Shown one piece after another: positions 2,051 through 23,593 of a DNA stretch of 64,000 nt. Both the position numbers and the translations under genes were made by a program. The stretch is from contig JBGOEV010000005.1 of assembly GCA_041538025.1 (NCBI GenBank), forward strand, positions 12,123-76,122. Direction: 5' to 3'. The stretch's first letter is position 1. Every line of letters starts with the position of its first letter. The notes under the pieces are model-generated. The model made no database searches and was not told where the DNA came from. It saw nothing but the letters and a program-made list of their open reading frames with translations. This DNA comes from Candidatus Thermosaccharophagus gerlachensis. Lineage in GTDB: Bacteria; Armatimonadota; Fervidibacteria; Fervidibacterales; Thermosaccharophagaceae.

Positions 2051-2189
2051 TACTCATGGCAGGAAGGTGTGCCGTGCTTCAACACCATAGCGAAGGTAAT
2101 GGGGAAAAGTTTATGCATGCTATTGCGCTTGGTCGTTTGGTGGAAGACGTAATAATGGTTTTTTCTCCATTCGTGGTGGTGCTCAGCAG

Positions 2190-4641: not shown

Positions 4642-4691
4642 TCGTAGGGAATGTGCGTAAGGTTGAAATACATCCTTTGGGGGTGAAGCCG

Positions 4692-5465
4692 ATGATAGAC
4701 ACCATGCTCAAATTTCTCTCGTTTGATTTAAAGTGCGCATGGTGGACAAAGCTTTGCAAGACAGTCGTTATAGTGAGTGTGTTGTTCTCTTTGTTCTCTG
4801 TGCACAGCAAAGCTTTTTCGGACGAGAGTTCACCACCACAACAAGGCAAGCTGTTGATCGCTGTTGTGGACATGGATAGGCTTCTTAAGGAGTATCAGGA
4901 GTTGAGGAAGGCTGACGAGGAGTATAAGATTGAGGTGAGGAGGCGGCAGGAAAAATTAGAGATGAGGGAGATGCTTAGACCAGAAGAGATACGCGAGCTT
5001 GATAAGCTTGAAGCGCTTGAAGCTGAAGGGAAGCTAACGAGTGAGGGGAAGAAAAAACTTGAAGAGCTAAAGAGACTCTCGGAGGAGAGACGCAGCCTCA
5101 TGAATATACTCATAACGAAAACGCTCACCGAGGAAGAAAAGAAACAGCTCGCCGAACTTCAGGAGATAACTCGTTCAAACGAGCCACTGCTTAAAAAGAT
5201 GCAAGAGAAATATGATGAAGAACTTGGCAGGCTGATGGACGCCTACCTTGAGAGGTTAGGCAAGCGCATATACGATTCTGTGAAAGCGGTCGCACAACGC
5301 TACGGTATAAAGCTCGTCATAGCTAAAAGAGGGATGCAAAAGTGGCAAGCAGTGTTTGATGAATTTGTCCTTTATGCTGACGCGACGATGGAAATAACAC
5401 AAGAAGTTCTTAACATACTCAACGCACCGCCTGAGACGAAAGGTAAAGAGCAACCAAAGAAGTGA
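4692..5465 (+). CDS. OmpH/Skp-family periplasmic chaperone paralog 1
   Basis: Start chosen at ATG 4692, after RBS GGGGGTGA. It has a signal/anchor followed by LLIAVVDMDRLLKEYQELRKADEEYK, then a long Glu/Lys/Arg-rich coiled coil. It sits between bamA and lpxD, the canonical skp position. Confidence 0.7.
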   Translation: MIDTMLKFLSFDLKCAWWTKLCKTVVIVSVLFSLFSVHSKAFSDESSPPQQGKLLIAVVDMDRLLKEYQELRKADEEYKIEVRRRQEKLEMREMLRPEEIRELDKLEALEAEGKLTSEGKKKLEELKRLSEERRSLMNILITKTLTEEEKKQLAELQEITRSNEPLLKKMQEKYDEELGRLMDAYLERLGKRIYDSVKAVAQRYGIKLVIAKRGMQKWQAVFDEFVLYADATMEITQEVLNILNAPPETKGKEQPKK

Positions 5466-5512
5466 ATTGGCTTGCTTTCATTGGGATCATAAAGCAATGC
5501 GAGGTGAACAGG

Positions 5513-6217
5513 ATGAATAAACATGATGAAGCAACTGGAGGAGGGAAAGGAGCAGGGTTATTTCCCTACAAGATTTTGACGGTGCTCGCGTTGGCTTTCA
5601 TTTTAGCAGCGATGATGAGCATCTTCGGCTCGCTTGTATCGGCGCAAGCTGGGTTGAAAGTTGGTGTGATAAATGTTGGAGCGATACAGAGGGAGTTCAG
5701 CGAATACAAAGAGGCAGCGAAAAGGCTTGAGGAGGAAAGAAAGGCATACGAACAAAAGTTGGCACAGTTGCGAGCTTATCTTCTTTTGAGGGGTGAGGAG
5801 TTGGATGAGCTATTGAAACTGAGTTCAAAGGCAGGGTTAAGCGAAGCTGAGCACCGCAGGCTCCTTGAGTTGCGTGGGTTGCAATTGCAGCGCGCTGATG
5901 AATTACAGCGGTTGAGCACAACACCACCAGATAAACTCACACAGGCTCAACTACAGCGCCTTAAGGAGCTACAAGCTATAGCGCGTGAGAACAGCAATAG
6001 ACACAAGGAGTTGGCAGAAGAGCTGCAGAAGAAATTGGACAACCTGAGTGAGCAATTGCGCTCTCATGTTGAGGGGCGAATAAAAGAGGCAGTGGCTGAG
6101 GTGGCAAAGAGAGAAGGATTAGATTTAGTGCTTGACTATAACGCTGTTTACTTCGTCCGTGGTGAGGTTCTTGACATAACATCTCTGGTCATAAAGCGCT
6201 TGAGCAAAACTAAGTGA
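5513..6217 (+). CDS. OmpH/Skp-family periplasmic chaperone paralog 2
   Basis: Start at ATG 5513, after RBS GAGGTGA. The TM/signal is ILTVLALAFILAAMMSIFGSLVSAQA, followed by the Skp-type onset LKVGVINVGAIQREFSEYKEAAKRLEEE and a coiled coil. Confidence 0.7.
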   Translation: MNKHDEATGGGKGAGLFPYKILTVLALAFILAAMMSIFGSLVSAQAGLKVGVINVGAIQREFSEYKEAAKRLEEERKAYEQKLAQLRAYLLLRGEELDELLKLSSKAGLSEAEHRRLLELRGLQLQRADELQRLSTTPPDKLTQAQLQRLKELQAIARENSNRHKELAEELQKKLDNLSEQLRSHVEGRIKEAVAEVAKREGLDLVLDYNAVYFVRGEVLDITSLVIKRLSKTK

Positions 6218-6225
6218 GGGAAGCG

Positions 6226-7299
6226 ATGAAGCTTTTGCGAGTTATCGCATTTGCCTCATGCTTAGTGCTCCAAATAACTCATGCTGTTGGTGAGAAGGAC
6301 ACGAAGCATTATGCCGTTGGTTGTCGTGTGGCGTTCGTAGATATTGATCAGCTTTTGCATGTTCACCCAATTCGCAATGCACTCATGCTTTCACTTGGTG
6401 AGTTAAAGAGAAGCCTGTTGTATCGCCAGCCAAAGCAACAAACGGAAGCGAATGCTAAACAGCATCTTGATTTAAAGGTTGCGCCAATATTCCCAACTGA
6501 AATAGCAGAGCCAGTCGAACCGACACTTGAAGGACTCCACGAAAACGACCTTGGTATGATCAAGCGAGCGTGTGAGCGTCTCAAGGCAGTCATTGAGGAA
6601 TTGCGCAACGATGCTGAAAATCAACTTTCGCTGCTTTTGGACGCTAAGAGAGCCGAGATAAAAAAACAATACCTCTCGGAGCTGCAAAATTTACTTGAGC
6701 TTCAATCTCCTATAAGGACAAGGATAAGCATACGCCTTCTTAGCCCTTCGCTGAGTGCGTTAGAGCGTGAAGCCCTTTTGTTGGAGGAGAAGAAACTTGA
6801 TGCAGAGATTGAAAGCAAACTGATGGAAGCACAACAAAAGGCTGAAAAGCAGTTGCTTGAATATGAGTATTCACTGCGGGAAAAAGTGTCAGAGCGCTTC
6901 AAGAGGGTGAATAGCGAGCTTGAGAAGTGCTTTTTTGATGCACTGCGCGCACTCGTGCGAGGGCACACCCCACCAAAGTGGTTAAATGTGCGTGATCTAT
7001 GGCACGCCTTGAACCCACAGGTTGAAGAGTCGTTTAGCATGAAAGTGGTGGAGCAAAAGCTTTTGGACAACCTCAGGAAAATGGAGGAGCATTTGGATTT
7101 GGAGGGCATCGTTGGGGCTGTTGAATTTGAGTGTGTAAGCAGTTGGGAAAACGCTCTCAGGGAAAGCATCATTCGTTTTGCGAATGCTTATGCGTTGCAA
7201 CATGGCTTTAGGAAGCTCGTGACGAAGAGGCAACATGGTGCGGTTGATATTACAAAAGATGTGGCAAGGGAATTAAAGAAAGTGATGCATATCAGATGA
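6226..7299 (+). CDS. OmpH/Skp-like coiled-coil periplasmic protein, paralog 3 (long)
   Basis: Start at ATG 6226, after GAGGGA. The signal peptide is MKLLRVIAFASCLVLQITHA. VAFVDIDQLLHVHP resembles the Skp N-terminal strand. The rest is extended heptad-like Leu/Glu/Lys sequence. This is the most divergent of the three paralogs. Confidence 0.5.
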   Translation: MKLLRVIAFASCLVLQITHAVGEKDTKHYAVGCRVAFVDIDQLLHVHPIRNALMLSLGELKRSLLYRQPKQQTEANAKQHLDLKVAPIFPTEIAEPVEPTLEGLHENDLGMIKRACERLKAVIEELRNDAENQLSLLLDAKRAEIKKQYLSELQNLLELQSPIRTRISIRLLSPSLSALEREALLLEEKKLDAEIESKLMEAQQKAEKQLLEYEYSLREKVSERFKRVNSELEKCFFDALRALVRGHTPPKWLNVRDLWHALNPQVEESFSMKVVEQKLLDNLRKMEEHLDLEGIVGAVEFECVSSWENALRESIIRFANAYALQHGFRKLVTKRQHGAVDITKDVARELKKVMHIR

Positions 7300-7320
7300 C
7301 GTTGGGTGAGAGGTTTTGCT

Positions 7321-8370
7321 ATGAGAAGACGAAATGTTAAGGTGACGCTCGGCGAAATAGCAAAGCTTGTCAATGGAAAGGTCGTCGGCGACGAGAACAT
7401 TGCTATTAGTGGCATAAGCGATATTGAAGATGCGAAGCCAAGCGATATTGTTGTTGCGTTTGACGAACGACACGCAGACATCGCGTTCTCAAGCAATGCA
7501 GGTGCTGTGCTTGTCCCACCGGGCTTGGAGAGGGGAGAGAAACCATGTATTACTTGTGAGCAACCAAAGCTTGCAATGATCATTATCGCTGAGATGTTTG
7601 CTGAAGAAAGGTTCTCACCATCTGGCATAAGTGAACTTGCAGTCATACATCCAACAGCGAAAGTTGCCCAAGATGCATCAGTAGGTCCTTTTAGCTTCAT
7701 TGGAGAGATGAGTGAGGTTGGTTCAAGGACGATCGTCTATCCCTTTGTCTACATTGGGGCAAGCGTGAAGGTTGGTTGCGATTGCACGATTTATCCGGGG
7801 GTGGTCATATACGACGGTGTGTGCATTGGTGATAGGGTAGTCATACACGCTAATGCGGTCATAGGTAAAGATGGGTTTGGTTTTGTTTGGGATGGGAAGA
7901 TGCATAGACGGATACCACAAATTGGCACTGTGCTCATTGAGGATGATGTTGAAGTAGGCGCTAACACATGCGTAGACAGAGCAACACTCGGTGTGACGAG
8001 GATAAGGAAGGGGACAAAGATAGATAACCTCGTTCAAATCGCTCACAACTGTGATGTGGGCGATTCGTGCATTCTTTGTGGTATGTCTGGGCTCGCTGGG
8101 AGCGTGAAGCTCGGAAAGAATGTGATGGTAGGAGCACAAGCTGGGGTGAGAGATCATGTGAGCGTTGGTGATGGGGCAACCATTGCCGGTAGGGCTGCCG
8201 TGACGAAGGATGTAACAGGTGGTGAGGTCGTCTCAGGCTATCCAGCAAGACCGCACAAAGAGGCTTTGCGTATAGAGGCGTTTATCCATCAACTGCCAAA
8301 CTTATATGAGAGAGTAAAGAGGCTTGAGGAAACGGTGAGGGAGCTGAAGAAGGTTAATTCAGATTCGTAG
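7321..8370 (+). CDS. lpxD: UDP-3-O-(3-hydroxyacyl)glucosamine N-acyltransferase
   Basis: The N-terminal domain is VTLGEIAKLVNGKVVGDENIAISGISDIEDAKPSDIVV. Many hexapeptide (left-handed beta-helix) repeats follow (IHPTAKV, VGPFSFIG, IYPGVVIYDG, IHANAVIG ...), then a C-terminal helix. ATG 7321 follows RBS GGGTGAGAGG. Confidence 0.9.
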   Translation: MRRRNVKVTLGEIAKLVNGKVVGDENIAISGISDIEDAKPSDIVVAFDERHADIAFSSNAGAVLVPPGLERGEKPCITCEQPKLAMIIIAEMFAEERFSPSGISELAVIHPTAKVAQDASVGPFSFIGEMSEVGSRTIVYPFVYIGASVKVGCDCTIYPGVVIYDGVCIGDRVVIHANAVIGKDGFGFVWDGKMHRRIPQIGTVLIEDDVEVGANTCVDRATLGVTRIRKGTKIDNLVQIAHNCDVGDSCILCGMSGLAGSVKLGKNVMVGAQAGVRDHVSVGDGATIAGRAAVTKDVTGGEVVSGYPARPHKEALRIEAFIHQLPNLYERVKRLEETVRELKKVNSDS

Positions 8371-8395: not shown

Positions 8396-10204
8396 ATGCA
8401 ATGTAGCAAGCGTTGCAGGAACACAACATTCTTCATTGTGGCATTGCTTGTAACATGGCTATGCAATTGTTTGGATGCAAGATGTGAGATCATAACCTCG
8501 CTCAAGTTAAGCTTGAGGAAGGTTTCAGCCACTTGTATTGAGCTTTTATCCAACAACGAAGTAATCCTGCGTGTTAGGCACGAGAATGCAAGGCTATGTG
8601 AGGAGGCAGCAAACAAGCTTTTCAAGGCATTGCATGAAGCCTTAGCATCACTTGCGACCGATAAAGCAGTCACTGTTGAGAAGGCAGTTGGTGGCTATTC
8701 AATTTACATTGGAGGTCGCCACGCCCTCTTTGTTGACCATGCTATGGCTCGCTCATCAAGAAGCCTTCCTCAGGCACTTGCGAACCTCATTGCGACTCGT
8801 TTAAAGGAGTTACTTAAGCGCCCATACTTGGTTGCACCAGTTGAGAAGGTTTTGATAGGTGTTAATGAAGCGTATGTGATAGCGCTCTCTGGGACTGCTA
8901 CAGGTGAGTGGAAATTCTCTGTCACTCCGCGTGAGTGTGCCCACATCTCCTTTGATGCAGCAACAAAGACTTTGCGTATAAGCGCTTTGAAGCCGGCAGA
9001 TGGGAGGGTAAGCATAAGCTGTGGCGAAGCCTCTCTGTCACTTACCCTGAAAATAATGGAGAGAGCTATGAGGCTATTGCGGAAACCAATCGCCATGGTC
9101 TATGGCGCGGCGCCAAAAGAGTTCATCACTGAGGCAGCTATCAACGCATTACTTAATTCAATTGAGCTTCAACCGAAAGCCGAACTTGCTTATGAGCTGT
9201 TCTTCACATCAAGGGATACCGATGAACGCCTCTTTACGCGATTGAAGGCACGCGGTGCTTCGTATCTACCATTTGATGCTGAAGTTGAGATACAGACTTT
9301 GCGCATACCACTTGCAATGGAATTCGCAAAATATCTCTCAGTGAGCAACGATCCAGAGCGAATTCATACAGAACAAGTTTTGAAGGCAGGTGTTCTAACG
9401 AGCTCTTTCAAACCGATGCGTTTGCTTTATCACCATGTGAATGTGAGTGGTAGAAAGCTTTGGCTACGCCTTGAGCTTTTCAACTCCTCCGAAGCACCAG
9501 CAAAAATAGTTTTGCGGTTTGCTCGTGGCGGACCAACAAGCGATGAGATACATGCTGGCTATAGCGCTGTGAATTCCTTCCTGAGGAGCTGGTTTAATGG
9601 GACTGCGTTCATCATTGAAGTCCTACCAAAAACCATATATGTTGCTGATGAGCTGGCAGTCCCAAACGGGAACACAGTGACAGGGATTTGGGAGATAGCT
9701 CCAATCTATGGAGAAGGATTGGGCTATCAACTGCGAGCTGTCGCTGAGCCATCTCCTTGGCGTTTGTTGCCTTTGGTGGCAAGGACAATAACAGCGCCCC
9801 CAAGAGTGAGCCACTTTGCCGAACCTATGAAAAGAGTAATCGCAAAACATATTATCGGAGGTAATTGGACATTTGTGCACATAGGACGAGAACCAATAAA
9901 GGGGTTAGAAGGCGAGCACTTACATGGCAACTACGGTGTCATCTATCACATAACTGTCAGCGTGGAAAACAAAAGCGAATTTGAACGCCCTTGCGAACTT
10001 GTGTTTTCACCAAACGCTGGTGTTGCAAGGTTCGTTGGCATAGTTAACGGTAAGCTGTTGTCATCTCCAACAATGAGGGAGAATCAGGAATATGTGCTTC
10101 GCAAGTGGTATGTATCTCCGTTGAGCACCGAGCAAATTGATGTCTACACAATGCCTATACCAGCTTCTTACTACCCAGTTAGCCTCATCATACGTTCTCG
10201 GTAG
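8396..10204 (+). CDS. Hypothetical secreted protein (602 aa), no recognisable domain
   Basis: Long ORF starting 25 nt after lpxD on the same strand. The N-terminus is hydrophobic (TTFFIVALLVTWLCNCLDA). I recognise no family motif. Coding status is supported by length and amino-acid composition. Confidence 0.6.
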   Translation: MQCSKRCRNTTFFIVALLVTWLCNCLDARCEIITSLKLSLRKVSATCIELLSNNEVILRVRHENARLCEEAANKLFKALHEALASLATDKAVTVEKAVGGYSIYIGGRHALFVDHAMARSSRSLPQALANLIATRLKELLKRPYLVAPVEKVLIGVNEAYVIALSGTATGEWKFSVTPRECAHISFDAATKTLRISALKPADGRVSISCGEASLSLTLKIMERAMRLLRKPIAMVYGAAPKEFITEAAINALLNSIELQPKAELAYELFFTSRDTDERLFTRLKARGASYLPFDAEVEIQTLRIPLAMEFAKYLSVSNDPERIHTEQVLKAGVLTSSFKPMRLLYHHVNVSGRKLWLRLELFNSSEAPAKIVLRFARGGPTSDEIHAGYSAVNSFLRSWFNGTAFIIEVLPKTIYVADELAVPNGNTVTGIWEIAPIYGEGLGYQLRAVAEPSPWRLLPLVARTITAPPRVSHFAEPMKRVIAKHIIGGNWTFVHIGREPIKGLEGEHLHGNYGVIYHITVSVENKSEFERPCELVFSPNAGVARFVGIVNGKLLSSPTMRENQEYVLRKWYVSPLSTEQIDVYTMPIPASYYPVSLIIRSR

Positions 10205-10218
10205 AAGTTGCTTTCTTC

Positions 10219-11271
10219 TCACTCTACCTTCTCCCAAGATGTGAGCATTGAGCCACTTATCTTTATTTCGACGCTGACATGAGCCGTTTCATCCTTCACT
10301 TTCTCTTTTTCCTCTATCAAACCTTCCTGACGGAGCAGTTCCTTCGGCACTTCAGCGCTTTGCCCAACATCAAGCGAGAATTTTAGTTCAACCCTTAGTG
10401 GGACCTCGTTTGTAATATCAAAGAATGCTTCGCCATCAATGATAAGGGTTGCGTTTTCAACTTTCATTTTTATCGGCTTCCTCAATTGTGGCAGTTGCGT
10501 GATTGATTCAACATTGGAAATCTCAGACTTAGCCTCTATAGTTAGCAATGCAACTTTTGCTTTCGTAGCCTCGTCAATGCGAACCGATTCAAGCTTGATG
10601 TTCATCTTCACAGGTATTGGTTGTTCCGCAAAAGGTGTTGGGAGCTTAAAATCTCTTTGCCAAGCCTCACCGATAGCTACTTCTTCATCGGGGAAGATAG
10701 GTGGAAGCTGTTCAAAAAATTGCTGAGGATCAAAGTTAGGTATAAAGAACTGAAACCTCTCAAAGCCGATCGCTGAGCTCACTTTCCCATCTGGTCTCAT
10801 CGTTATCATGAGCGGTCCAAAAAGCAGGGCATGGATGCGTTTCCTCTCTGCCTCTGGGAGAGCTTGTGTATCAATCTTGAGCTCGCCTATGGTGACGACC
10901 ATGCGTCCCTCTTCAACGTGCAAGCTCGTTTTTTGACCAAACAGAATGCCGTTTAAATCCATCTCCTTTGCGCGGAGCTCAACCAAGCCATCGCCCTCTT
11001 CGCTAACCATCTTTACAGTCCCGATGAGCGTGCTACGAGCGTCAATCAAGATGTCGCTCTCTATAGTTTTCTTTTCGACCCCGTCTATGGTCAGTTGCAT
11101 CTGACCAGCGATTTTCCCGTCTGTCTGGATGGCATGCTTTCTACCTTGCTCAAATTTGATGTGTAGTTTGACCTTTTCATTCGCTTCGCCAGCAATTACA
11201 CAGGGGGAGTTAGTAAGGCAGGTTAAGAACGCGAAAGCTATCACCAAAATGACTTTCCTCAATCGCTTCAT
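10219..11271 (-). CDS. Hypothetical secreted protein/lipoprotein
   Basis: Start moved to ATG 11271 (MKRLRKVILVIAFAFLTCLTNSPCVIAG, a clear signal peptide) with RBS GGAGGTGG upstream. An extended -10 element, TGCTATAAT, lies at 11318-11326 and would place the TSS downstream of the ORF-track start at 11319. Confidence 0.6.
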   Translation of the reverse strand: MKRLRKVILVIAFAFLTCLTNSPCVIAGEANEKVKLHIKFEQGRKHAIQTDGKIAGQMQLTIDGVEKKTIESDILIDARSTLIGTVKMVSEEGDGLVELRAKEMDLNGILFGQKTSLHVEEGRMVVTIGELKIDTQALPEAERKRIHALLFGPLMITMRPDGKVSSAIGFERFQFFIPNFDPQQFFEQLPPIFPDEEVAIGEAWQRDFKLPTPFAEQPIPVKMNIKLESVRIDEATKAKVALLTIEAKSEISNVESITQLPQLRKPIKMKVENATLIIDGEAFFDITNEVPLRVELKFSLDVGQSAEVPKELLRQEGLIEEKEKVKDETAHVSVEIKISGSMLTSWEKVE

Positions 11272-11317
11272 GCTTATTCCACCTCCATACGGGTTGCAGT
11301 ATGGCTTCGCTTTCACC

Positions 11318-11326
11318 ATTATAGCA
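11318..11326 (-). promoter_or_regulatory. Putative extended -10 promoter element (TGcTATAAT) for the 10219-11271 gene
   Basis: The minus strand reads ..ttgttgTGcTATAATggtg.. about 45 nt upstream of ATG 11271. There is no good -35, which is consistent with the extended -10 class. Confidence 0.3.
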
Positions 11327-11399: not shown

Positions 11400-12275
11400 T
11401 TAAAGCTCTGCCTCGTCAAGGACTGCTGGAACATACTTGTCCCATCCAAGTGGCATTATGTGGACACCATGACACATATGTTTCATTTGCCTTATTAGCC
11501 TGCCAGCTATCTCTATGCTTTTCTTCGGTCTGTCCTCTTTTGATACCGAAGCAAGTTCCTTTATGAGTTCCTCAGGGACTGTCACGCCTGCCACATTCTC
11601 GTTCATATACCGAGCCATTGCTGGGGACTTTAAAAGGACGATGCCGAGCATTATCGGCACACCAAACTTGCTTGCCCTCTCCATAAAGCGCTCAAAAACG
11701 CTCACATCGTAAACAGCCTGCGTTTGAAAGAACTGTGCTCCAGCTTCAATCTTCTTCTCCATCTTGATCAACTGCAATTCAAGTGGCTCATACCCTGGGC
11801 TTACCACAGCGCCGAGGAAGAATTTCGGTTTGCCATCAAGTTCGTTACCCATCATGTCGTATCCTTCCATGAGCCTTTTTGCCACCTTAAGCAGTTGAAC
11901 AGAATCAAGGTCGAAAACTGGCTTTGCTTGCGGGTGGTCTCCAAGCGTTGTATGGTCGCCAGTTAGACAAAGAACATTTTCAATTCCGAGCACGGCAGCG
12001 CTGAGCAAATCCGACTGTAATGCTATTCTGTTCCTATCACGGCATGTTACTTGAAGTATCGGTTCAAGCCCTCTCTGCTTCAGCAAATAGCATGTGACCA
12101 ACGAGCCAAGACGCATAACTGAGCTTTGTTGGTCTGTGACATTGAAGGCATCAACTCTTTCTTTCAGTTTCTCGGCTTCCTCTAAGACTGGTTCAATGTT
12201 TGTTCCCTTTGGTGGTCCAACCTCTGAAGATATAGCGAATTCACCTCTTTCAAATTTTTCGCTGAGCTTGCTCAT
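11400..12275 (-). CDS. metF: Methylenetetrahydrofolate reductase, acetogen/anaerobe-type MetF
   Basis: FAISSEVGPPKGTNIEPVLEEAEKLKERVDAFNVTDQQSSVMRLGSL...LQVTCRDRNRIALQSDLLSAAVLGIENVLCLTGDH is typical of the short MetF that pairs with MetV. It lies directly downstream of metV. Confidence 0.9.
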   Translation of the reverse strand: MSKLSEKFERGEFAISSEVGPPKGTNIEPVLEEAEKLKERVDAFNVTDQQSSVMRLGSLVTCYLLKQRGLEPILQVTCRDRNRIALQSDLLSAAVLGIENVLCLTGDHTTLGDHPQAKPVFDLDSVQLLKVAKRLMEGYDMMGNELDGKPKFFLGAVVSPGYEPLELQLIKMEKKIEAGAQFFQTQAVYDVSVFERFMERASKFGVPIMLGIVLLKSPAMARYMNENVAGVTVPEELIKELASVSKEDRPKKSIEIAGRLIRQMKHMCHGVHIMPLGWDKYVPAVLDEAEL

Positions 12276-12314
12276 AGCGCATCATCCCTTCCGAAATTGG
12301 TTGATTAGGTTTCT

Positions 12315-12989
12315 TCATTTCGCTCTCCTTTCAAGAGCCCAAAGAGAAGAGCTCCGAAGCTGTGGGCTTGGGATGTATTTTTGGAAGTCCTTTGGCTGGA
12401 CATACTTCTTAAGCAAGTCAAGCCTTCCAATGCGCTTTAAGCGCTCATAAATCAAATACCATCCGCAGTCAAGCTCTTTATCAACTTCGCATTTCCCATT
12501 GTTAGTTCCACCACATGGTCCATTGAGCAACGACTTCGCACAAAGAGTTATCGGACAAAGCCCACCCGTTAGGTAAAGCAGGCAATCACCACATTGGTTG
12601 CACCTTTCCGTTGATTGCCATACACCAGCAACACCCCTCATCGGGAGGGTGTTAAAGGCTGGGTAAGCAACCTTATCAACCGTATTTGCGACTGCTTGCA
12701 CTCCAACACCACACGAGAGCACAAGCATGCAATCTGCCTCGTTTAGTTCGTTGATATGCCTCCCGATATGTATCCCAACCAATGCCTTGTTGCAAAGGAA
12801 TTCGATGAGCGCGCTTCCCGTTATCTTTTTCCCGTTGCTCTCAAGCAGCTCCTTCATTTCAAGCACCTTTTGTTCTCCACCTACCTCAGCTCCAACTGGA
12901 CAGCCACCACACGCAACAATGAATATTGCCCTTTCATCTTGCAGGAAGGCGAGTATCTCATCTTTTGGTTTCGGCTCAACAAGGATCAT
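12315..12989 (-). CDS. metV: MetV, Fe-S subunit of methylene-THF reductase (MTHFR C-terminal-domain family)
   Basis: The Cys-rich C-terminal half is CNQCGDCLLYLTGGLCPITLCAKSLLNGPCGGTNNGKCEVDKELDCGW, matching the MetV zinc-ribbon/Fe-S signature. RBS GGAGGGG is present. The start is 3 nt after the protease stop. Confidence 0.8.
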   Translation of the reverse strand: MILVEPKPKDEILAFLQDERAIFIVACGGCPVGAEVGGEQKVLEMKELLESNGKKITGSALIEFLCNKALVGIHIGRHINELNEADCMLVLSCGVGVQAVANTVDKVAYPAFNTLPMRGVAGVWQSTERCNQCGDCLLYLTGGLCPITLCAKSLLNGPCGGTNNGKCEVDKELDCGWYLIYERLKRIGRLDLLKKYVQPKDFQKYIPSPQLRSSSLWALERRAK

Positions 12990-12992
12990 CTT

Positions 12993-13487
12993 TTACCCCT
13001 CCGCATTTTGTGTCAGCTCAGCCGTTTGACTTAGCATCATTGCAGTTTGCTTTACAGCCATAACATACTCATCCATGCGCTCAGCGAGCTGTGGTGATAT
13101 TTCAAGTGAGGGTTTGATAGAATGGATTTGAATCCCAATGAGGGTGGCGTTGATTTCTTTTCCTGTGGAGAGCTCTATCATTTTAAGTGCATGGAAGATA
13201 TCAAACTCGTGAAGTGAAAGTGGTGCACGGTGATCATCTTTCAAAAGTTCCTTAACTTGGATTTTGACCACATCACCAGCTTGCATACCTGAATCAACTG
13301 CATCAACGATAATCAGTGACTCAGCATTCTCAAGCAACGGAGATGCAGCTAATCCCGATGTCCCAGCATCTACAATTTCAACGCCTTCTGGGAGACCGCT
13401 TTTTGAAACCTCGTTCACGACATGCACACCGATACCGTCGTCGCCCATCAAGATGTTTCCTACACCTACAATGAGCACCTTAGCCAA
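12993..13487 (-). CDS. [NiFe]-hydrogenase maturation endopeptidase (HyaD/HybD/HoxM family)
   Basis: Carries VLIVGVGNILMGDDGIGVHVV, IVDAGT, IIVDAVD and LSLHEF. The ORF-track start (13559) overlaps the large subunit by 80 nt. I place the start at TTG 13487, with GAGGAGG 9 nt upstream, overlapping the large-subunit TAA. This gives about 165 aa, the normal family size. GTG 13478 is an alternative. Confidence 0.85.
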   Translation of the reverse strand: MAKVLIVGVGNILMGDDGIGVHVVNEVSKSGLPEGVEIVDAGTSGLAASPLLENAESLIIVDAVDSGMQAGDVVKIQVKELLKDDHRAPLSLHEFDIFHALKMIELSTGKEINATLIGIQIHSIKPSLEISPQLAERMDEYVMAVKQTAMMLSQTAELTQNAEG

Positions 13488-15009
13488 TGAGATTAACCTC
13501 CTCAATTTTTGAATCAGAGAGGTTAACCAGATGGACGGCACATGCAAGGCATGGGTCAAATGAGCGCACTATGCGCACTATCTCAAACGGGTTCTCCGGG
13601 TCTCTGACCTTTGTTCCCACGAGTGCTTGTTCAATTGCCCCATGCTGGTTTGTATCATCCATTGGTGATGCATTCCATGTTGTGGGAGAGATGATGCTAT
13701 AGTTTGCTATAGTGCCCCTTTCAATCTTGGTGAAGTGTGCAAGGCAACCCCGTGGTGCATCAACAAGCCCAACACCGTTAGCCTCTTCAGGCAATTCATA
13801 CGGTATGAAAGCTGGCTCATCTGGCTTCAGCCTATAGACCCAATCAACAAGCGCTTCTGCGATGAGCTTCGCTTCAACAGCCCTCGCTATAATGCGCCCC
13901 ATCACGGAAAACATCGCATCAATACCGACAGGGAGTTCGCTCAAGATGGCATTTAAACACTCCACTACTGCTTTGTTACCAGAGGCATAGTTTACGAGTA
14001 GCCTCGCAAGCGGTCCAACCTCATGTGCTAAGCCTTTATAGCGCGGTGCCTTGATGAACGAATATGCACCATCTTTCTTTGGGCTCGCTGTCCCGTCCTC
14101 TTCATACCATGAGTAGCGAACCGATTCGCTTATGTTGCTGAGATCATCAAGTGGCATGTAGTTCAGCGATTCATCGGTGCTCCCTTGCCTCAAAAGTCTC
14201 TCACGCTTCGTATAGTCCGCTTCACTACCGATGTCAAAGAAACCGAATGTGAGCATCCTTTTGCATCCTATGCCTATAGTGAAGTAGTCGCTGTATGACT
14301 TCGCAACCTTTATCACATCTGGAATGTATGCGTTCTCAATGAACTGCAACAGTTCCTTAGCACGCCAAGCGAATGATGCTATCTTGTCAACTGTTGGGGT
14401 GCATGTGACGCCTCCAGCTACTATTCCAGCCTGTATTGGAGTCCTTCCACCAAACAAGCTAAGCATGTCATGGGCTTTCTTTCGCATTTGGAAAGCCTGC
14501 AAGTAGTGCAACAGGAGGGCTTTGTTATCTTCATCGTTGAGCCTGTAATCGCCTTCGTAGCGTGGCAAGAAGGGCGAAAGTTGATTGCCAGAGAGGAAGC
14601 GCCTAAGGTTATCAAAGTCATTCTCGGTGTAGTTTGTAGCCCTCTTTATGTCGGCATAATCAAGCGAGCATAGATGATAGAAGTGGAGGATATGGTTGTG
14701 GACGTATTCAGAACCAAGTATGAGGTTGCGCAATATGCGCCCGTTGTCTGGTATCTTGTCTGCGATACCGAATGCTGAATCCAAGCAAAGTGCAGATGCA
14801 GTTCCATGTGGCACTGGGCACACTCCGCACACTCTCTGCGTAATCCTTACAGCGTCTCGTGGGTCTCGCCCGCGCAGGATCAGTTCAATGCCGCGATAGA
14901 GCACCCCGCTACTCCTTGCATCAACGATGGTGTTATTGTCGTCAAGCAAGACCTCAATCTTCAAATGACCTTCAATCCTCGTCATTGGGTCTATGATTAT
15001 TTTCTGCAT
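13480..15009 (-). CDS. [NiFe]-hydrogenase large (catalytic) subunit
   Basis: Contains IDPMTRIEGHLKIEV. The N-terminal Ni-Fe ligand motif is RVCGVCPVPH. The C-terminal motif is DPCLACAVH, followed by a 16-aa tail (LVNLSDSKIEEVNLIG) of the kind removed by the maturation protease. There is no in-frame TGA. Confidence 0.95.
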   Translation of the reverse strand: MQKIIIDPMTRIEGHLKIEVLLDDNNTIVDARSSGVLYRGIELILRGRDPRDAVRITQRVCGVCPVPHGTASALCLDSAFGIADKIPDNGRILRNLILGSEYVHNHILHFYHLCSLDYADIKRATNYTENDFDNLRRFLSGNQLSPFLPRYEGDYRLNDEDNKALLLHYLQAFQMRKKAHDMLSLFGGRTPIQAGIVAGGVTCTPTVDKIASFAWRAKELLQFIENAYIPDVIKVAKSYSDYFTIGIGCKRMLTFGFFDIGSEADYTKRERLLRQGSTDESLNYMPLDDLSNISESVRYSWYEEDGTASPKKDGAYSFIKAPRYKGLAHEVGPLARLLVNYASGNKAVVECLNAILSELPVGIDAMFSVMGRIIARAVEAKLIAEALVDWVYRLKPDEPAFIPYELPEEANGVGLVDAPRGCLAHFTKIERGTIANYSIISPTTWNASPMDDTNQHGAIEQALVGTKVRDPENPFEIVRIVRSFDPCLACAVHLVNLSDSKIEEVNLIG

Positions 15010-15043
15010 CCAATTCTCAACCCCCTCACCATGAGCCTCTTAC

Positions 15044-15955
15044 TTAACCCATCTTATGGCACAGCTTCCCTGTTGCTTCATCAATTTGGAGCTTCGGCAA
15101 GCGCTCTTCTGAGAAGGGTTCGTAAATCGGAGACATGATGTCAGGGAAGCCCGGCTCACAGCACCCAATGCATGGATGCCCGTTGTCTATGCACCAGTTG
15201 ATGCCGCTGTTCCACTTGCGCAATGGGCAATCGGAGAATGTGACATAACCTTTGCAACCAAGCTCATATAGACATCCTTCCTTACCAAACTCCTTTGCCA
15301 TTCGCCCTGTGTCAAAGTAGCCTCTCCTTGGACAGTTATCGTGGATGAGCTTGCCATAAAAGAGCTTCAAGCGCCCAAGTTCATCAAGCTGGTTTTCCTT
15401 CGGAAGACCAAAGAGCGCAATATAAGCACATGCCCCAACAAACCAATCTGGGTGCGCAGGACACCCCGGAACACATACCGATGGCGTGTCTATCCCGTTC
15501 AAACGCATGAACTCAACGATGCCCATAGCACCAGTTGGGTTTGGTCTTCCAGATGGTATGCCACCAAACGATGCGCAAGTCCCAAGCGCTATGACCGCCA
15601 TTGCGTTTTCAGCCAGCTCAGCAGCATGCTCTTTAAGTGTAATCGGCTTGCCGTCCTTCTCACCGATGGTGCAGAAGAGACCATCTGCTGCCGTCGGTAT
15701 GGCTCCTTCCATAACGAGCACATAACCTTTCTGCAGTTCCTTCTTTGTCTCATTGAGGATCTCTATCACTGCCTCACCGGAGCCTGCCATAAGCGTCATA
15801 TGGAATCGCAAGCTTATGTGCTTCCCCGGGACGAGCTCTTCAAGTAGCAGATTAGCAATTGAGGGATAAATCGCGTTGAGCACGGATATGCTACAACCGG
15901 TGCACGTTGCTCCTTGAAGCCAAACAACGGATATCTCTCCATCCTCTCTCACCAC
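15044..15955 (-). CDS. [NiFe]-hydrogenase small (Fe-S) subunit, no Tat signal
   Basis: Cys ligand pattern: ATCTGCSIS, GTCASFGG, PGCPAHP, HDNCPRRG, CLYELGCKG, SDCP, NWCIDNGHPCIGCCEPGF. The conserved core starts about 10 aa from the N-terminus and there is no RRxF twin-arginine leader. AGGAGG lies at 15966-15961, so GTG 15955 or 15952 is a likelier start than the GTG at 15961. Confidence 0.9.
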   Translation of the reverse strand: MVREDGEISVVWLQGATCTGCSISVLNAIYPSIANLLLEELVPGKHISLRFHMTLMAGSGEAVIEILNETKKELQKGYVLVMEGAIPTAADGLFCTIGEKDGKPITLKEHAAELAENAMAVIALGTCASFGGIPSGRPNPTGAMGIVEFMRLNGIDTPSVCVPGCPAHPDWFVGACAYIALFGLPKENQLDELGRLKLFYGKLIHDNCPRRGYFDTGRMAKEFGKEGCLYELGCKGYVTFSDCPLRKWNSGINWCIDNGHPCIGCCEPGFPDIMSPIYEPFSEERLPKLQIDEATGKLCHKMG

Positions 15956-16014
15956 CAACACCTCCTACTCGGCTACAGCAAGTCTACACAAAACCACGCG
16001 CTTGCGCAAGCCCT

Positions 16015-17724
16015 TCAGAACAGCCCTATTACTCTCCCTGTCTCTGGGTCAATGTCTACATCAACGAACGCAGGTCTTGATGGCAACCCCGGCATCGTTT
16101 GCATCTCGCCAGCAATCGGATAAAGGAATCCAGCCCCAACTGATGCCCTTATATCACGCACTGGGAATATGTAACCACTTGGGACATTCTTCCAATTCGG
16201 ATCATGCGATATTGAAAGGTGTGTCTTAGCCATGTTGATTGGGAATCTATCCCAACCAAACTTTGAGTATAGCTCAATCTTGCGCATCGCAAGCGATGAG
16301 AACTCAACATCATCAGCGTTGTAAATCTCCCTTGCTAATATGCGTATTTTCTCCTCAATTGAAAGCTCATCTGGATATAGGAAGCGCATCTGAGCTGGCT
16401 TCTCGTCAAGCACCCTTATAACCTCTTTAGCAAGGTCAATTGCGCCCTCTCCACCTTTAGCCCAAGACTCAGAAACCGCAAACCCATCTGCGCCAGCCTC
16501 TTCAGCTTTTCTCCTTACAACTTCAATTTCACTCTCATGGTCAGTTGTGAACCTGTTGAGTGCGACCACCGAAGGTATGCCGAGCTTCTTAGCTATCCCG
16601 ATGTGCCATGCGAGGTTCTCACAACCTCGCTCAACAGCCTCTGGATCTTCGCGCTCAATAAATTCCTTAACTGACTCAACCGATTGCCCCGGACGGAATT
16701 CAAAGGCACCCCCATGAAGCTTAAGTGCTCTTATGGATGCCACTATAACAGCGCAGTCAACCTTAAGCCCACCAAGACGGCATTTGACATTGACAAGCTT
16801 CTCAAAACCACAGTCAGCACCAAAGCCGCTTTCAGTGACGACATAGTCGGCGAGTTTAAGCGCAACCATGTCAGCTATAACCGAATTGTTTCCGAAAGCC
16901 ACATTGGCAAACGGGAAGCCATGAACAAAAACGGGGTGATGTTCAAGCGATTGACATAGGTTTGGTTTAATTGAATCCTTCATGAGTGCAGCCATTGCAC
17001 CAGCCACTTTCAAGTCCTCCGCAGTTACTGGCTTGCCATCGTATGTGAAGCCAACCACTATCCTTCCCAACCTCTCCCTCAAGTCCTTCAAGCTCTTCGC
17101 CAGCGCATGTATTGCTGCGGTCTCGGTGGCAACAGTTATGTCATAGCCAGTTTGCCTTGGGTATCCATTCGCTCTGCCTCCTAAGCCTATGACAATGTTC
17201 CTCAAAGCTCTATCGTTGATATCAACGCACCTTGTCCATGTGACTTCAAGCGGATCAATGCCGAGCTTGTTGCCATGAAGTATGTGCGCATCAATTGCAG
17301 CAGCGCATAAGTTGTGGGCTGCCTCAACAGCTGGTATGTCACCTGTGAACATCAGGTTGATTTCAACCATTGGCACAACTTGAGCGTATCCACCACCAGT
17401 TGCCCCTCCCTTTATGCCGAATGTTGGTCCTTTAGATGGTTCGCGCATCGTATTGCAGACCCTCTTTCCGAGACGGTGAAGCGCCATACCAAGCCCTAAA
17501 GCTGTTACAGTCTTGCCCTCACCAAGTGGCGTTGGAGTTATAGCAGTGACGGTGATAAGCTTTCCATTTGGTTTATCGGCAAGCCTCTCAAGCACAGAGA
17601 GGTTTACCTTTGCAATGTATTTACCATATGGCTCTATCTCATCATCTTCTAAGCCAAGTTGGCGTGCTATCTCAATGATTGGCTTTAGCTCAGCGCGATA
17701 CGCGATCTCAATGTCAGACAGCAT
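16015..17724 (-). CDS. fhs: Formate--tetrahydrofolate ligase
   Basis: Contains MLSDIEIAYRAELKPIIEIARQLGL, the P-loop region TPTPLGEGKTVT, and a highly conserved body through the C-terminal ..DVDIDPETGRVIGLF. RBS GGAGGTGA is present. Confidence 0.97.
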   Translation of the reverse strand: MLSDIEIAYRAELKPIIEIARQLGLEDDEIEPYGKYIAKVNLSVLERLADKPNGKLITVTAITPTPLGEGKTVTALGLGMALHRLGKRVCNTMREPSKGPTFGIKGGATGGGYAQVVPMVEINLMFTGDIPAVEAAHNLCAAAIDAHILHGNKLGIDPLEVTWTRCVDINDRALRNIVIGLGGRANGYPRQTGYDITVATETAAIHALAKSLKDLRERLGRIVVGFTYDGKPVTAEDLKVAGAMAALMKDSIKPNLCQSLEHHPVFVHGFPFANVAFGNNSVIADMVALKLADYVVTESGFGADCGFEKLVNVKCRLGGLKVDCAVIVASIRALKLHGGAFEFRPGQSVESVKEFIEREDPEAVERGCENLAWHIGIAKKLGIPSVVALNRFTTDHESEIEVVRRKAEEAGADGFAVSESWAKGGEGAIDLAKEVIRVLDEKPAQMRFLYPDELSIEEKIRILAREIYNADDVEFSSLAMRKIELYSKFGWDRFPINMAKTHLSISHDPNWKNVPSGYIFPVRDIRASVGAGFLYPIAGEMQTMPGLPSRPAFVDVDIDPETGRVIGLF

Positions 17725-21245: not shown

Positions 21246-22346
21246 GTGGTAAACGCAGAATGGAAGTCAAAGGAAGCCCAGGCACTGAGCAGTTGCGTGA
21301 ACAATATAGCTGAGATAATTCCGACATTACCACCACCATTGAACATGGTGGGTAATACGCCTTTGATACGGTTACATACCCTTGAGAAGCTCATAGGGTG
21401 TGGAAGAGTTGAGATATACGGCAAGGCTGAATGGTTCAACCCGGGAGGGTCGGTGAAAGACCGCCCAGCGTTGTGGATGATACTTGATGCAATACTCAAA
21501 GGTGAGCTTACGCCCGATAAGACAATACTTGAAGCTACATCTGGCAACACCGGGATAGCATACGCGCTTATTGGGGCAGTGCTCGGGTATAAGGTAAAGC
21601 TGATTATGCCAGCAAATGTAAGTGAGGAACGCAAACGCATATTGGCTGCATATGGTGCCGAGGTAGTTTATACTGACCCTTCGGAAATGATTGATGGTGC
21701 AATTGAACACGCCCACAAGCTGTATGAGCAGGAGAAGGAGAAGTATTTTATGCCAGACCAGTATAACAACCCAGCCAATCCTCTTTCCCATTATCAAACA
21801 ACCGGACCTGAAATCATCAGGGACACAAACGGGCGCATAACGCATTTCATTGCTGGTTTGGGGACTTCTGGAACAATGATGGGTGCTGGGAAAAGGCTTA
21901 AGGAGTTTAATCCCGAGATACAGCTCATAGCAGTCCAACCAGATTCGCCTTTGCATGGCATTGAAGGGCTTAAGCATATGGCTTCTGCAATAGTGCCGAG
22001 GATATACGAACCTGACTCCGTGGACGAACAAATATTCGTTCGCACAGAAGATGCATACGATATGATGCGCTTGATGGCTCGCTGTGGATTACTCGTAGGT
22101 AAGTCATCTGGCGCTGCCTTGGTTGCAGCAGTTGAGGTTGCTCAAAGGCTTAAGCACAATGATGCGGTCATTGTTGTAATGCTCCCAGACAGTGGTGTTC
22201 GCTACCTTAGCACATGCATTTTTGAATGCCCTTATGAGGGATATGTTTGCCTCAAGATGGTGCGTTCGCTCGCTCAACGCATAGGTGTAAAATTCGCCGA
22301 TGGCGAAGCTCAGGAAATACCTATCTCGTCAAAAGAATGCAAATAA
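21246..22346 (+). CDS. Cysteine synthase / O-acetyl(phospho)serine sulfhydrylase family PLP enzyme
   Basis: Contains GNTPLIRL, AEWFNPGGSVKDRPA (PLP Lys) and EATSGNTGIAYA, then GLGTSGTMMG and LPDSGVRYLS. It carries an extra C-terminal tail of about 45 aa. GTG 21246 follows AGGTGA. Confidence 0.85.
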   Translation: MVNAEWKSKEAQALSSCVNNIAEIIPTLPPPLNMVGNTPLIRLHTLEKLIGCGRVEIYGKAEWFNPGGSVKDRPALWMILDAILKGELTPDKTILEATSGNTGIAYALIGAVLGYKVKLIMPANVSEERKRILAAYGAEVVYTDPSEMIDGAIEHAHKLYEQEKEKYFMPDQYNNPANPLSHYQTTGPEIIRDTNGRITHFIAGLGTSGTMMGAGKRLKEFNPEIQLIAVQPDSPLHGIEGLKHMASAIVPRIYEPDSVDEQIFVRTEDAYDMMRLMARCGLLVGKSSGAALVAAVEVAQRLKHNDAVIVVMLPDSGVRYLSTCIFECPYEGYVCLKMVRSLAQRIGVKFADGEAQEIPISSKECK

Positions 22347-22447
22347 GCTGTGAGGGCAAGCTTGATTTATCGCAGTGTCTGTTCACACAGTTTGTCAAAC
22401 AGCAATTGCGCTCATAGTTTAAATCTTCTCATGACGGGGTGAAACTC

Positions 22448-23593
22448 ATGATTGAGTTTGTTAAGCCAAAAGAGTTGAGGGCTCAAAAGCAGGTTCTTCT
22501 CATCTTCATAGGCGGCTTCTTAGGTGCAGGCAAAACAACGGCTTTAGGCGCAATTGCCCGCCGCTTGATGCAGCAAGGCTTGACAGTCGGTTTGGTCACC
22601 AACGACCAAGCAGCCAATTTGGTGGACACTGCCATCGTCAAGGAATTGGGCATCCCTGTAGCTGAAGTTGCAGATGGTTGCTTCTGTTGTCGGTTCAGCG
22701 ATTTGGTGGACGCAACGGAACAAATTTTGGCAAAAAATCCAGATATCCTTTTGGGTGAACCTGTGGGAAGTTGCACCGATTTTGCAGCAACCATCATCAA
22801 CCCACTCAAACTCTTCTACGGCGACATTTTCCGAATCGCCCCCTTCTCCGTTCTCGTTGACCCATTGAGGGTTCGGGAGTTGGTGCTCAAGGAGACGCCC
22901 AGCAGATTCCCGGAGGGAGTCGCTTACATCTTCAAAAAGCAACTTGAGGAAGCCGACATCATCGTTCTCAACAAGGTTGATACCCTCACAACCGATGAAG
23001 CCGAAAAGATGGTGAATTCCCTAAAAGAGTTGCAGCCCAACAAACCTGTTTTGAAAGTCTCGGCTCTTTATGGCGATGGTGTAGACGAGTGGCTACAGAT
23101 ACTGATGAGTGATGCACCTTCAGGTTCACACATTTTGCATGATATTGACTACGACACCTATGCGAAGGGCGAAGCTGTCTTGGGATGGCTTAACGCAACG
23201 GTTCGGCTCATCGGCTCGCCAGCTTTCAATGCCCGTCAATTCGCTGAAGTTTTGATGAGGGAGTTGCAAACAGCCATCAATGTTCAAAACGCTGAAGTTG
23301 CTCACCTTAAGTTTCTGTTGACCAGTGGGACTCAGAGTTTGCGGGCACATCTCACGAAAGCTGGTGCCGAACCGAATTTCATTGGCGAATTGGGTGAAGT
23401 CAACGAAGCAACTTTGGTGCTCAACGCTCGCGTGGCGGTAGCGCCCGATGTTTTAGGGGGGCTCGCATCGCAAGCAGTTCTTAAAGCATCAAAGTCCGTC
23501 AACGCCGAAGTGGAAATATTGAGCTTTCAATCCTTCAGTCCACCTTATCCACGCCCACCATATCGGCTGAGCAAGCCTCTCAAGGTTGATTGA
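22448..23593 (+). CDS. G3E-family P-loop GTPase (CobW/HypB/UreG/MeaB superfamily) with C-terminal domain
   Basis: Walker A is GGFLGAGKTT. Also present: TNDQ, the Cys motif DGCFCC, a switch-like GEPVGSCTD, and the NKVD guanine-specificity motif. A C-terminal domain of about 170 aa follows. ATG 22448 follows GGGGTGA. Confidence 0.65.
   Translation: MIEFVKPKELRAQKQVLLIFIGGFLGAGKTTALGAIARRLMQQGLTVGLVTNDQAANLVDTAIVKELGIPVAEVADGCFCCRFSDLVDATEQILAKNPDILLGEPVGSCTDFAATIINPLKLFYGDIFRIAPFSVLVDPLRVRELVLKETPSRFPEGVAYIFKKQLEEADIIVLNKVDTLTTDEAEKMVNSLKELQPNKPVLKVSALYGDGVDEWLQILMSDAPSGSHILHDIDYDTYAKGEAVLGWLNATVRLIGSPAFNARQFAEVLMRELQTAINVQNAEVAHLKFLLTSGTQSLRAHLTKAGAEPNFIGELGEVNEATLVLNARVAVAPDVLGGLASQAVLKASKSVNAEVEILSFQSFSPPYPRPPYRLSKPLKVD

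Follow-up and report, generated by a model that had tools for sequence, protein, structure and literature searches.

A [NiFe]-hydrogenase lacking a Tat leader and encoded with metV and metF: a candidate H2-dependent methylene-tetrahydrofolate reductase module in Candidatus Thermosaccharophagus gerlachensis and its relatives

The DNA analyzed here (hereafter, the window) is a stretch of 64,000 nucleotides (nt) from Candidatus Thermosaccharophagus gerlachensis, a member of the Armatimonadota (GenBank assembly GCA_041538025.1, contig JBGOEV010000005.1, positions 12,123 to 76,122). An earlier reading of the sequence (the original prediction) had pointed to six minus-strand genes at 11400-17724, separated by very short spacers, in which a [NiFe]-hydrogenase is embedded between fhs and metV-metF, and had proposed them as a candidate module for the H2-dependent reduction of methylene-tetrahydrofolate (methylene-THF). 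We found all six open reading frames (ORFs) intact at these positions, and assigned their products to families using Pfam and NCBIfam, with matches near full length. The run contains the following features, listed 5' to 3':

16015-17724, minus strand: fhs, formate-tetrahydrofolate ligase, 569 amino acids (aa), first gene of the run (PF01268, NF010030)
15953-16014, minus strand: fhs-hydS spacer, 53-62 nt, with the hydS ribosome-binding site AGGAGG (sequence read)
15044-15961, minus strand: hydS, [NiFe]-hydrogenase small subunit, 302-305 aa, without a twin-arginine translocation (Tat) leader (PF01058 and PF14720)
15047-15118, minus strand: HydS C-terminal tail, PFSEERLPKLQIDEATGKLCHKMG (small-subunit alignment)
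13480-15009, minus strand: hydL, [NiFe]-hydrogenase large subunit, 509 aa, with cysteine and not selenocysteine (PF00374, NF033181)
14806-14835, minus strand: L1 Ni-Fe ligand motif RVCGVCPVPH, residues 59-68 (sequence read; columns invariant in alignment A1)
13531-13557, minus strand: L2 Ni-Fe ligand motif DPCLACAVH, residues 485-493 (sequence read; columns invariant in alignment A1)
12993-13487, minus strand: HycI/HybD-type hydrogenase maturation endopeptidase, about 161-164 aa (PF01750, TIGR00072)
12315-12989, minus strand: metV, Cys-rich Fe-S subunit of a MetFV-type methylene-THF reductase, 224 aa (PF12225)
11400-12275, minus strand: metF, flavin-binding TIM-barrel catalytic subunit of methylene-THF reductase, 291 aa (PF02219)

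The spacers are as short as had been claimed. The gap between fhs and hydS is 53 nt (or 62 nt with GTG 15952 as the hydS start), hydS and hydL are 34 nt apart, the hydL stop and the protease start overlap by 8 nt with TTG 13487 as the latter, and gaps of 3 and 39 nt separate the protease from metV and metV from metF, respectively. A Shine-Dalgarno-like purine run can be read 5' of each of the six genes, with GGAGGTGA upstream of the fhs ATG at 17724. For hydS, GTG 15952 is the likely start, having the best spacing from AGGAGG and the same start position as in homologues; the protease starts at TTG 13487, which is preceded by GAGGAGG at 9 nt, or at GTG 13478. Scans of the cluster region neither support nor break an operon: promoter and terminator consensus counts equal the shuffled expectation, a weak hairpin in the fhs-hydS spacer is no more stable than shuffled sequence (z = +1.1), and RNA folding of the region 3' of metF is no better than that of shuffles.

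Family scores are consistent with these assignments. Fhs reaches 806 bits against PF01268 (FTHFS) and 748 bits against NF010030 (cutoff, 652), HydL reaches 459 bits against PF00374 (NiFeSe_Hases) and 629 bits against NF033181 (cutoff, 600), and the protease matches PF01750 (HycI) and TIGR00072 (123 bits; cutoff, 47). HydS carries the Oxidored_q6 (PF01058) and NiFe_hyd_SSU_C (PF14720) domains, MetV scores 116 bits against PF12225 (DUF5981/MTHFR_C), and MetF scores 138 bits against PF02219 (MTHFR). In addition, MetF is 90-92% identical to the MetF of Armatimonadota loci L001-L006 (surveyed loci are cited below by L number).

As predicted, HydL contains both complete Ni-Fe ligand motifs, and the hydrogenase has its own maturation protease, a HycI/HybD-family gene whose start overlaps the hydL stop. 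The large subunit extends 16 residues past His493, a tail that is expected to be removed by the adjacent protease. HydS has conserved Cys/His ligands for the proximal, medial, and distal Fe-S clusters (alignment to 3ZE6_A), with a four-Cys medial pattern and a His-ligated distal cluster (HDNCP); HDNCP or HENCP is conserved across the clade. Thus, the pair has the attributes of a [NiFe] group 1-type heterodimer, namely L1 and L2 motifs, a three-cluster small subunit, and a C-terminal extension together with an endopeptidase. Among solved structures, both subunits come closest to periplasmic group 1a [NiFeSe] hydrogenases from Desulfovibrio and Desulfomicrobium (HydL, E = 6e-126), and HydS aligns from residue 11 with the mature small subunit of the [NiFeSe] enzyme of D. 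vulgaris (E = 3e-76).

The attributes of the periplasmic group 1a (Hys/Hyn) enzymes are absent, however. The claim that HydS has no Tat leader is confirmed by an in-frame TAG at 15965-15967, two codons 5' of the first possible start, and only 14 open codons precede the W-L-Q-G-x-x-C-x-G-C motif of the first cluster. Given this stop codon and the fhs stop only about 55-60 nt away, a Tat leader on HydS is physically impossible. A short, non-hydrophobic C-terminal tail of 24 residues stands in place of a membrane anchor; in the small-subunit alignment, Tat-less members share a Y-[EQ]-K...LP.IG-type tail of ~20 residues where Tat-bearing members have a hydrophobic helix. No periplasmic or membrane partner is encoded, the L2 motif has Cys (DPCLAC) and no selenocysteine, and the NCBIfam Hys models score below cutoff (NF045518 for HysA, 501 versus 780; NF045520 for the small subunit, 315 versus 470). 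The score of HydL against the VhuA model is only 100 bits (cutoff, 800). The absence of both leader and anchor places the hydrogenase in the cytoplasm. We considered NF033181 as a discriminator of this clade and rejected it, given that Tat-bearing and Tat-less members both pass. HydL passes this generic model only, so the Tat-less clade is not set apart by any curated family.

The adjacency of metV and metF, encoding a Cys-rich PF12225 protein and a PF02219 protein, places the reductase among the MetFV-type genes, and nine Cys are invariant in MetV (alignment A2). No PDB relative of MetV was found by sequence, and a Foldseek search of the PDB with its AlphaFold2 model (predicted local distance difference test score, 89.4) gave no match below E = 1e-3, the top matches being generic periplasmic-binding-protein lobes. 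MetV is structurally uncharted, in that a solved structure was not found. The N-terminal domain of MetV was also considered as an MvhD/FlpD-like adaptor; this assignment was rejected, the model having no significant structural neighbor. The original prediction had further noted that cytochrome b, a diaphorase, HdrABC, MvhD, and an RnfC-like partner are all missing from the cluster. Pfam and NCBIfam scans, which covered most ORFs of at least 150 aa, extend this to the whole 64 kb, and neither the gene set of MetFV-HdrABC-MvhD (type IV) nor that of MetFV-RnfC2 (type III) is present among the scanned ORFs; of the forms of the module, the Anaerolineae variant described below is the only one with such domains. 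The same window scans revealed no Rnf or Hyp genes.

With the aim of determining the distribution of the cluster, we scanned a large-subunit alignment across one genome per species and obtained at least 569 HydL relatives confirmed by tblastn. Locus counts refer to the 80 best of these 569, analyzed by tblastn with the window proteins, and taxon labels are those of the metagenome-assembled genome (MAG) records. The small subunit is Tat-less in 75 of the 80 loci: it lacks a twin-arginine leader, and the open frame ahead of the first cluster motif is only 8-35 codons long. Among these 75, 72 have metV within 1 kb of hydL, and the remaining three (L020, L041, and L053) are cut by contig ends. The hydSL-(hycI)-metVF core therefore recurs in every Tat-less locus of the 80 that is complete (72 of 72) and also in 10 of 10 independent contig look-ups. 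Among the latter, HydL homologues 72%, 63%, and 57% identical to that of the window are encoded in the order hydS-hydL-(hycI)-metV-metF or a close permutation, in hosts that include Armatimonadota, Desulfobacterota, and Anaerolineae. Chief among the gene orders are hydS-hydL-hycI-metV-metF, in 22 of the 80 loci, hydS-hydL-metV-metF, in 18, and metV-hydS-hydL...metF, in 6.

The module is spread over about ten phyla; the 80 loci include Chloroflexota, Planctomycetota, Armatimonadota, Desulfobacterota, Omnitrophota, Nitrospirota, Spirochaetota, and others. The three nearest MetV homologues from outside the Armatimonadota that were looked up (Omnitrophota and Planctomycetota among them) are all hydrogenase-linked, and HydL and MetV trees (unbootstrapped neighbor-joining, single outgroup) show the same groupings. 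The other 5 of the 80 loci form one clade in the neighbor-joining tree, and none of them has metV or metF within 10 kb. They have the order hydL-hycI-hydS, a small subunit with a C-terminal membrane helix, and downstream genes for a HybA-like protein (Fer4_11) plus NrfD or cytochrome b. In four of the five, the small subunit beside this hydL carries an RR[ED]F[LV] leader plus a hydrophobic region; in the fifth (L086), a Tat-bearing small subunit was found only as part of a second hydrogenase. The contrast between 72 of 72 and 0 of 5 is extreme at face value, and the hydSL-metVF linkage is not due to chance.

Several variants were recorded in the survey. In a Spirochaetota MAG (CALOBT010000031.1; L091:9161-11500), hydS and hydL form one open frame (…SPLYTKLKEENYEFFGGSMKKISIDPVTRIEGH…), a natural fusion of small and large subunits, still followed by metV-metF. 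In Dehalococcoidales MAGs (L018, L023, L025, L031, and L044, at about 12.0-14.4 kb), two different metV genes stand in tandem after hycI, followed by one metF, with the two copies about 45% and 38% identical to the window MetV. In Anaerolineae (L010/L014:1-15606; also L021, L029, L030, and L038), the hydrogenase lies within an Hdr-type cluster in the order HdrA-like gene (1337 aa), small ORF, metV, hydS, hydL, histidine kinase, metF, two response regulators, metV, metF, HdrBC-like gene (CCG), folD, and hycI. A search seeded with a Planctomycetota large subunit gave MAG and metagenome entries only, and no cultured carrier was found. The module is also present in two loci binned as archaeal (L095 and L096); we do not claim archaeal hosts, as L095 also contains ftsH and tilS and its binning looks doubtful.

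The conserved core comprises hydS-hydL-(protease)-metV-metF only. The cluster had been interpreted as an fhs-linked C1 module, and fhs does head the run in the window; however, it falls outside the conserved core and is found near only 4 of the 80 loci. A folD gene had also been pointed out at 62411. It is genuine, starting at that position (62411-63268, plus strand; NCBIfam FolD models up to 406 bits), but it is located 45 kb away, outside the cluster and among unrelated genes, unlike the folD of L007, L093, and L094. Near the surveyed loci, folD was found in 15 of 80. Wood-Ljungdahl gene clusters enclose the module in some relatives: L007 reads fhs-fchA-folD-hydS-hydL-hycI-metV-metF, L094 reads fhs-fchA-folD-hydS-hydL-hycI-metV-metF-cooC-cooS, and L093 reads cdhD-acsE-fhs-folD-hydS-hydL-metV-metF with an adjoining formate dehydrogenase, while L092 has a carbon monoxide dehydrogenase (CODH) and a second metVF beside hydS-hydL-hycI-metV, together with folD-fchA-fhs. 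In Armatimonadota MAGs (L001:6256-8077), fhs and hydS are separated by two ORFs of 350 and 236 aa that have no Pfam match and are absent from the window. Immediately upstream of hydS in L004:3295-8775 and L006:1412-6892, whose HydL is 72% identical to that of the window, we observed genes for HcyBio, a NIL-ferredoxin, a PALP enzyme, NifS, and NifU and no fhs, which hints at a link of the module to homocysteine/methionine or Fe-S metabolism.

Given the recurrence of hydSL-(hycI)-metVF across phyla, which supports the candidate module put forward in the original prediction, we postulate that the core probably forms a cytoplasmic HydSL-MetVF complex acting as a direct H2-dependent methylene-THF reductase. 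More specifically, H2 would be split at the Ni-Fe site of HydL, and the chain of three Fe-S clusters in the Tat-less HydS would carry the electrons as far as its surface-exposed, His-ligated distal cluster, which would hand them to the Fe-S clusters in MetV; the MetF flavin would then receive them and reduce methylene-THF to methyl-THF. MetVF would thus take the acceptor place held in periplasmic relatives by cytochrome c3, HybA/NrfD, or cytochrome b. The conserved C-terminal tail of HydS, situated where relatives have their anchor, may aid docking and is a candidate docking element. The physical complex with direct Fe-S to Fe-S transfer, the electron direction from H2 to methylene-THF, and the operation of the Hdr-free version without bifurcation are putative parts of this scheme, read from gene content and arrangement.

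By calculation, the transfer of electrons from H2 (-414 mV) to methylene-THF (about -200 mV) yields -41 kJ/mol under standard conditions. At the 1-10 Pa of H2 typical of sediments, the H+/H2 couple lies at about -270 to -300 mV, leaving -13 to -19 kJ/mol for methylene-THF reduction and making the reduction of NAD+ or ferredoxin unfavorable. Since H2 fails to reduce NAD+ or ferredoxin at such levels, direct wiring would keep the methylene-THF step running at low H2, an advantage that we consider plausible.

A number of points weigh against this reading. The function of HydSL-MetVF is proposed from genomic context, and it is from spacing that we infer co-transcription of the six genes. The linkage counts describe the best 80 of the 569 relatives, and because the five Tat-bearing loci are a single clade, the contrast between Tat leader and metVF amounts to approximately one evolutionary partner swap. 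No fusion of MetV to a hydrogenase subunit occurs among the 120 best MetV homologues, all of which are 203-248 aa long and contain PF12225 only. Direct H2-driven reduction would also dissipate about 41 kJ/mol (standard conditions) with no energy conserved. Finally, no CODH/acetyl-CoA synthase genes were found in the ORF scans of the 64-kb window, and the host may use methyl-THF either in a full Wood-Ljungdahl pathway or in methionine synthesis only.

These points bear on three other explanations. The hydrogenase and the reductase might be separate enzymes under shared regulation, with a cytoplasmic hydrogenase reducing ferredoxin or flavodoxin and free MetVF oxidizing the carrier, and the absence of fusions would fit this arrangement. 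The physiological donor of acetogen MetFV is debated, and according to two reports (PMC8760232, PMC8515935) reduced ferredoxin serves the purified enzyme in vitro, so that a soluble carrier could intervene, which also counts against a direct complex. Nevertheless, we regard such a carrier as unlikely: the hydrogenase is linked near-invariably to metV and not to other ferredoxin-using enzymes, a ferredoxin gene is not conserved in the core, and the reduction of ferredoxin by H2 is uphill at environmental H2. Moreover, the Tat-bearing relatives swap metVF for membrane partners, which suggests that the slot after hydSL is that of the direct acceptor. Operation in reverse, in which syntrophs or methylotrophs would couple methyl-THF oxidation to the evolution of H2 in order to oxidize methyl groups or acetate, would agree with the many hosts that are sediment Dehalococcoidia or Desulfobacterota, where an oxidative Wood-Ljungdahl pathway is common, and [NiFe] enzymes are reversible in principle. 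This direction is very unlikely in our judgment, being about 41 kJ/mol uphill under standard conditions and requiring H2 below roughly 0.01-0.6 Pa by calculation; in addition, the closest solved relatives are uptake enzymes, the window cluster starts with fhs, and relatives lie in reductive-type fhs-folD-...-acsE/cooS clusters.

The third explanation is electron bifurcation, in which H2 would reduce methylene-THF (exergonic) and ferredoxin (endergonic) together, as in MvhADG-HdrABC with methylene-THF taking the place of the heterodisulfide. Its energetics would be attractive for acetogens, and it draws support from the Anaerolineae loci with the hydrogenase inside an HdrA-like/HdrBC/metVF cluster (L010, L014, L021, L029, L030, and L038) and from a Desulfobacterota locus (L008) in which a second metVF, 4 kb away, has an HdrA/FlpD-like gene next to it. 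HdrA, MvhD, or another extra flavoprotein is, however, missing from the window cluster and from most of the 80 loci, and the N-terminal domain of MetV has no MvhD-like fold. We also know of no demonstration of bifurcation by bare MetFV, which counts against this alternative. We therefore hold bifurcation to be quite improbable as the general mode of the enzyme, and give an equally low chance to the narrower claim that HydSL-MetVF carries out flavin-based bifurcation, using H2 to reduce methylene-THF and ferredoxin together, in the Anaerolineae form associated with Hdr if not in others. Bifurcation is more plausible in Anaerolineae than elsewhere, and the Hdr-embedded variant found there could be an H2-driven bifurcating version. 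If so, many uncultured sediment bacteria would possess a new form of energy conservation at the Wood-Ljungdahl pathway's methylene-THF step.

The remainder of the window contains genes of other functions. A 366-aa gene located 80 nt downstream of metF (10219-11319, minus strand) has a sub-threshold DUF6263 match and a signal-peptide-like N-terminus, and is not conserved beside the module in relatives. A CysM/CysK-type cysteine synthase (TIGR01136, 354 bits; cutoff, 344) and a GTPase of the CobW/HypB/UreG family are encoded on the opposite strand at a distance of 3.5-6 kb upstream of fhs (21246-23593, plus strand). The segment at 65-8370 (plus strand) encodes TamB, an extracytoplasmic function (ECF) sigma factor, BamA (Omp85/POTRA), two OmpH/Skp-like proteins, an ORF without a Pfam match, and LpxD; because of this outer-membrane biogenesis block (TamB, BamA, OmpH, and LpxD), the host is likely a diderm. 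It looks to be of the Armatimonadota type, the best HydL match bearing a taxon name being from that phylum. The window also encodes a DUF1559 prepilin and two large ORFs that match no Pfam family at E <= 1e-5, one of 602 aa (8396-10204, plus strand) and the other of 698 aa (39575-41671, minus strand).

The electron donor of MetFV and energy conservation at the Wood-Ljungdahl pathway's most exergonic step are long-standing questions of acetogen bioenergetics. A conserved hydrogenase-MetVF module would constitute a fifth methylene-THF reductase architecture, with H2 as the direct donor, and it is widespread, to judge from the at least 569 large-subunit relatives among species-representative genomes. 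One Tat-less large subunit of the MetVF-linked type (entry P0311) is annotated as "Periplasmic [NiFeSe] hydrogenase large subunit", and others bear generic names. Surveys that count such enzymes as respiratory H2 oxidizers would misassign their role. If the bifurcating reading is correct, much of what metagenome surveys of Chloroflexota, Planctomycetota, and other phyla count as "group 1a respiratory" hydrogenases would be cytoplasmic acetogenic enzymes.

Among known hydrogenases, HysAB of D. vulgaris Hildenborough (PDB 5JSU, 3ZE6, and 2WPN) is the best match for both subunits, sharing L1 and L2, the His-ligated distal cluster, the four-Cys medial pattern, a cleaved C-terminal extension, and an endopeptidase of its own. 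The window enzyme differs from it in having neither a Tat leader nor a lipid or membrane anchor, in having Cys for selenocysteine, in scoring below the Hys cutoffs, in the 24-residue C-terminal tail of its small subunit, and in its genomic partner, which is MetVF and not cytochrome c3 or a membrane complex. In MvhAGD-HdrABC of methanogens (PDB 5ODC) and in the hydrogen-dependent CO2 reductase (HDCR) of Acetobacterium woodii, a cytoplasmic hydrogenase is hard-wired through Fe-S subunits to a C1 reductase. The proposed module would share this logic of H2 as a direct donor but is a member of neither system, whose hydrogenases are of group 3c [NiFe] (Mvh) and [FeFe] (HDCR) type and whose acceptors are different.

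On the reductase side, the known architectures, as covered by three reports (PMC8760232, PMC5736913, PMC9586279), are MetF alone, MetFV, MetFV-RnfC2, and MetFV-HdrABC-MvhD. Acetogen MetFV (Clostridium ljungdahlii and Thermoanaerobacter kivui) resembles the window genes in combining a MetF TIM barrel with a PF12225 MetV, encoded by adjacent genes and without an NAD(P)H-binding subunit. It has no hydrogenase attached or co-encoded, whereas the window has a dedicated one immediately upstream. MetFV-HdrABC-MvhD (Moorella thermoacetica and Sporomusa ovata; marine Anaerolineae, PMC5736913) is similar to the window in joining MetVF to a co-encoded cytoplasmic Fe-S/flavin input module; in the window, however, HdrA, HdrB, HdrC, and MvhD are missing, with a complete [NiFe]-hydrogenase as the input module. 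The variant found in Anaerolineae lies inside a cluster of this MetFV-HdrABC-MvhD type, the hdr-metVF part of which has been described without the hydrogenase (PMC5736913).

We found no characterized HydSL-MetVF enzyme in the literature searched. The statement of the original prediction that a defined complex of this kind is undescribed holds in that no biochemical, structural, or comparative study was found, but the idea itself appears in one sentence of PMC11287216 (FEMS Microbiol Ecol 2024). In MAGs of two operational taxonomic units of Ca. Bipolaricaulia, HysAB of group 1a (HydDB) adjoins MetVF and may, according to that report, supply electrons for methylene-THF reduction. Tat loss, distribution, conservation, and mechanism are not treated there, and the enzyme may belong to the same clade as that of the window. 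HysAB of Desulfobacterium autotrophicum (PMC2702500) and several "MetVF plus NiFe" papers were considered as precedents and set aside as irrelevant. Collectively, what is new here is the loss of both Tat leader and anchor, the near-perfect linkage to metVF in about ten phyla, the contrast with a Tat-bearing sister clade, and the Hdr-embedded variant.

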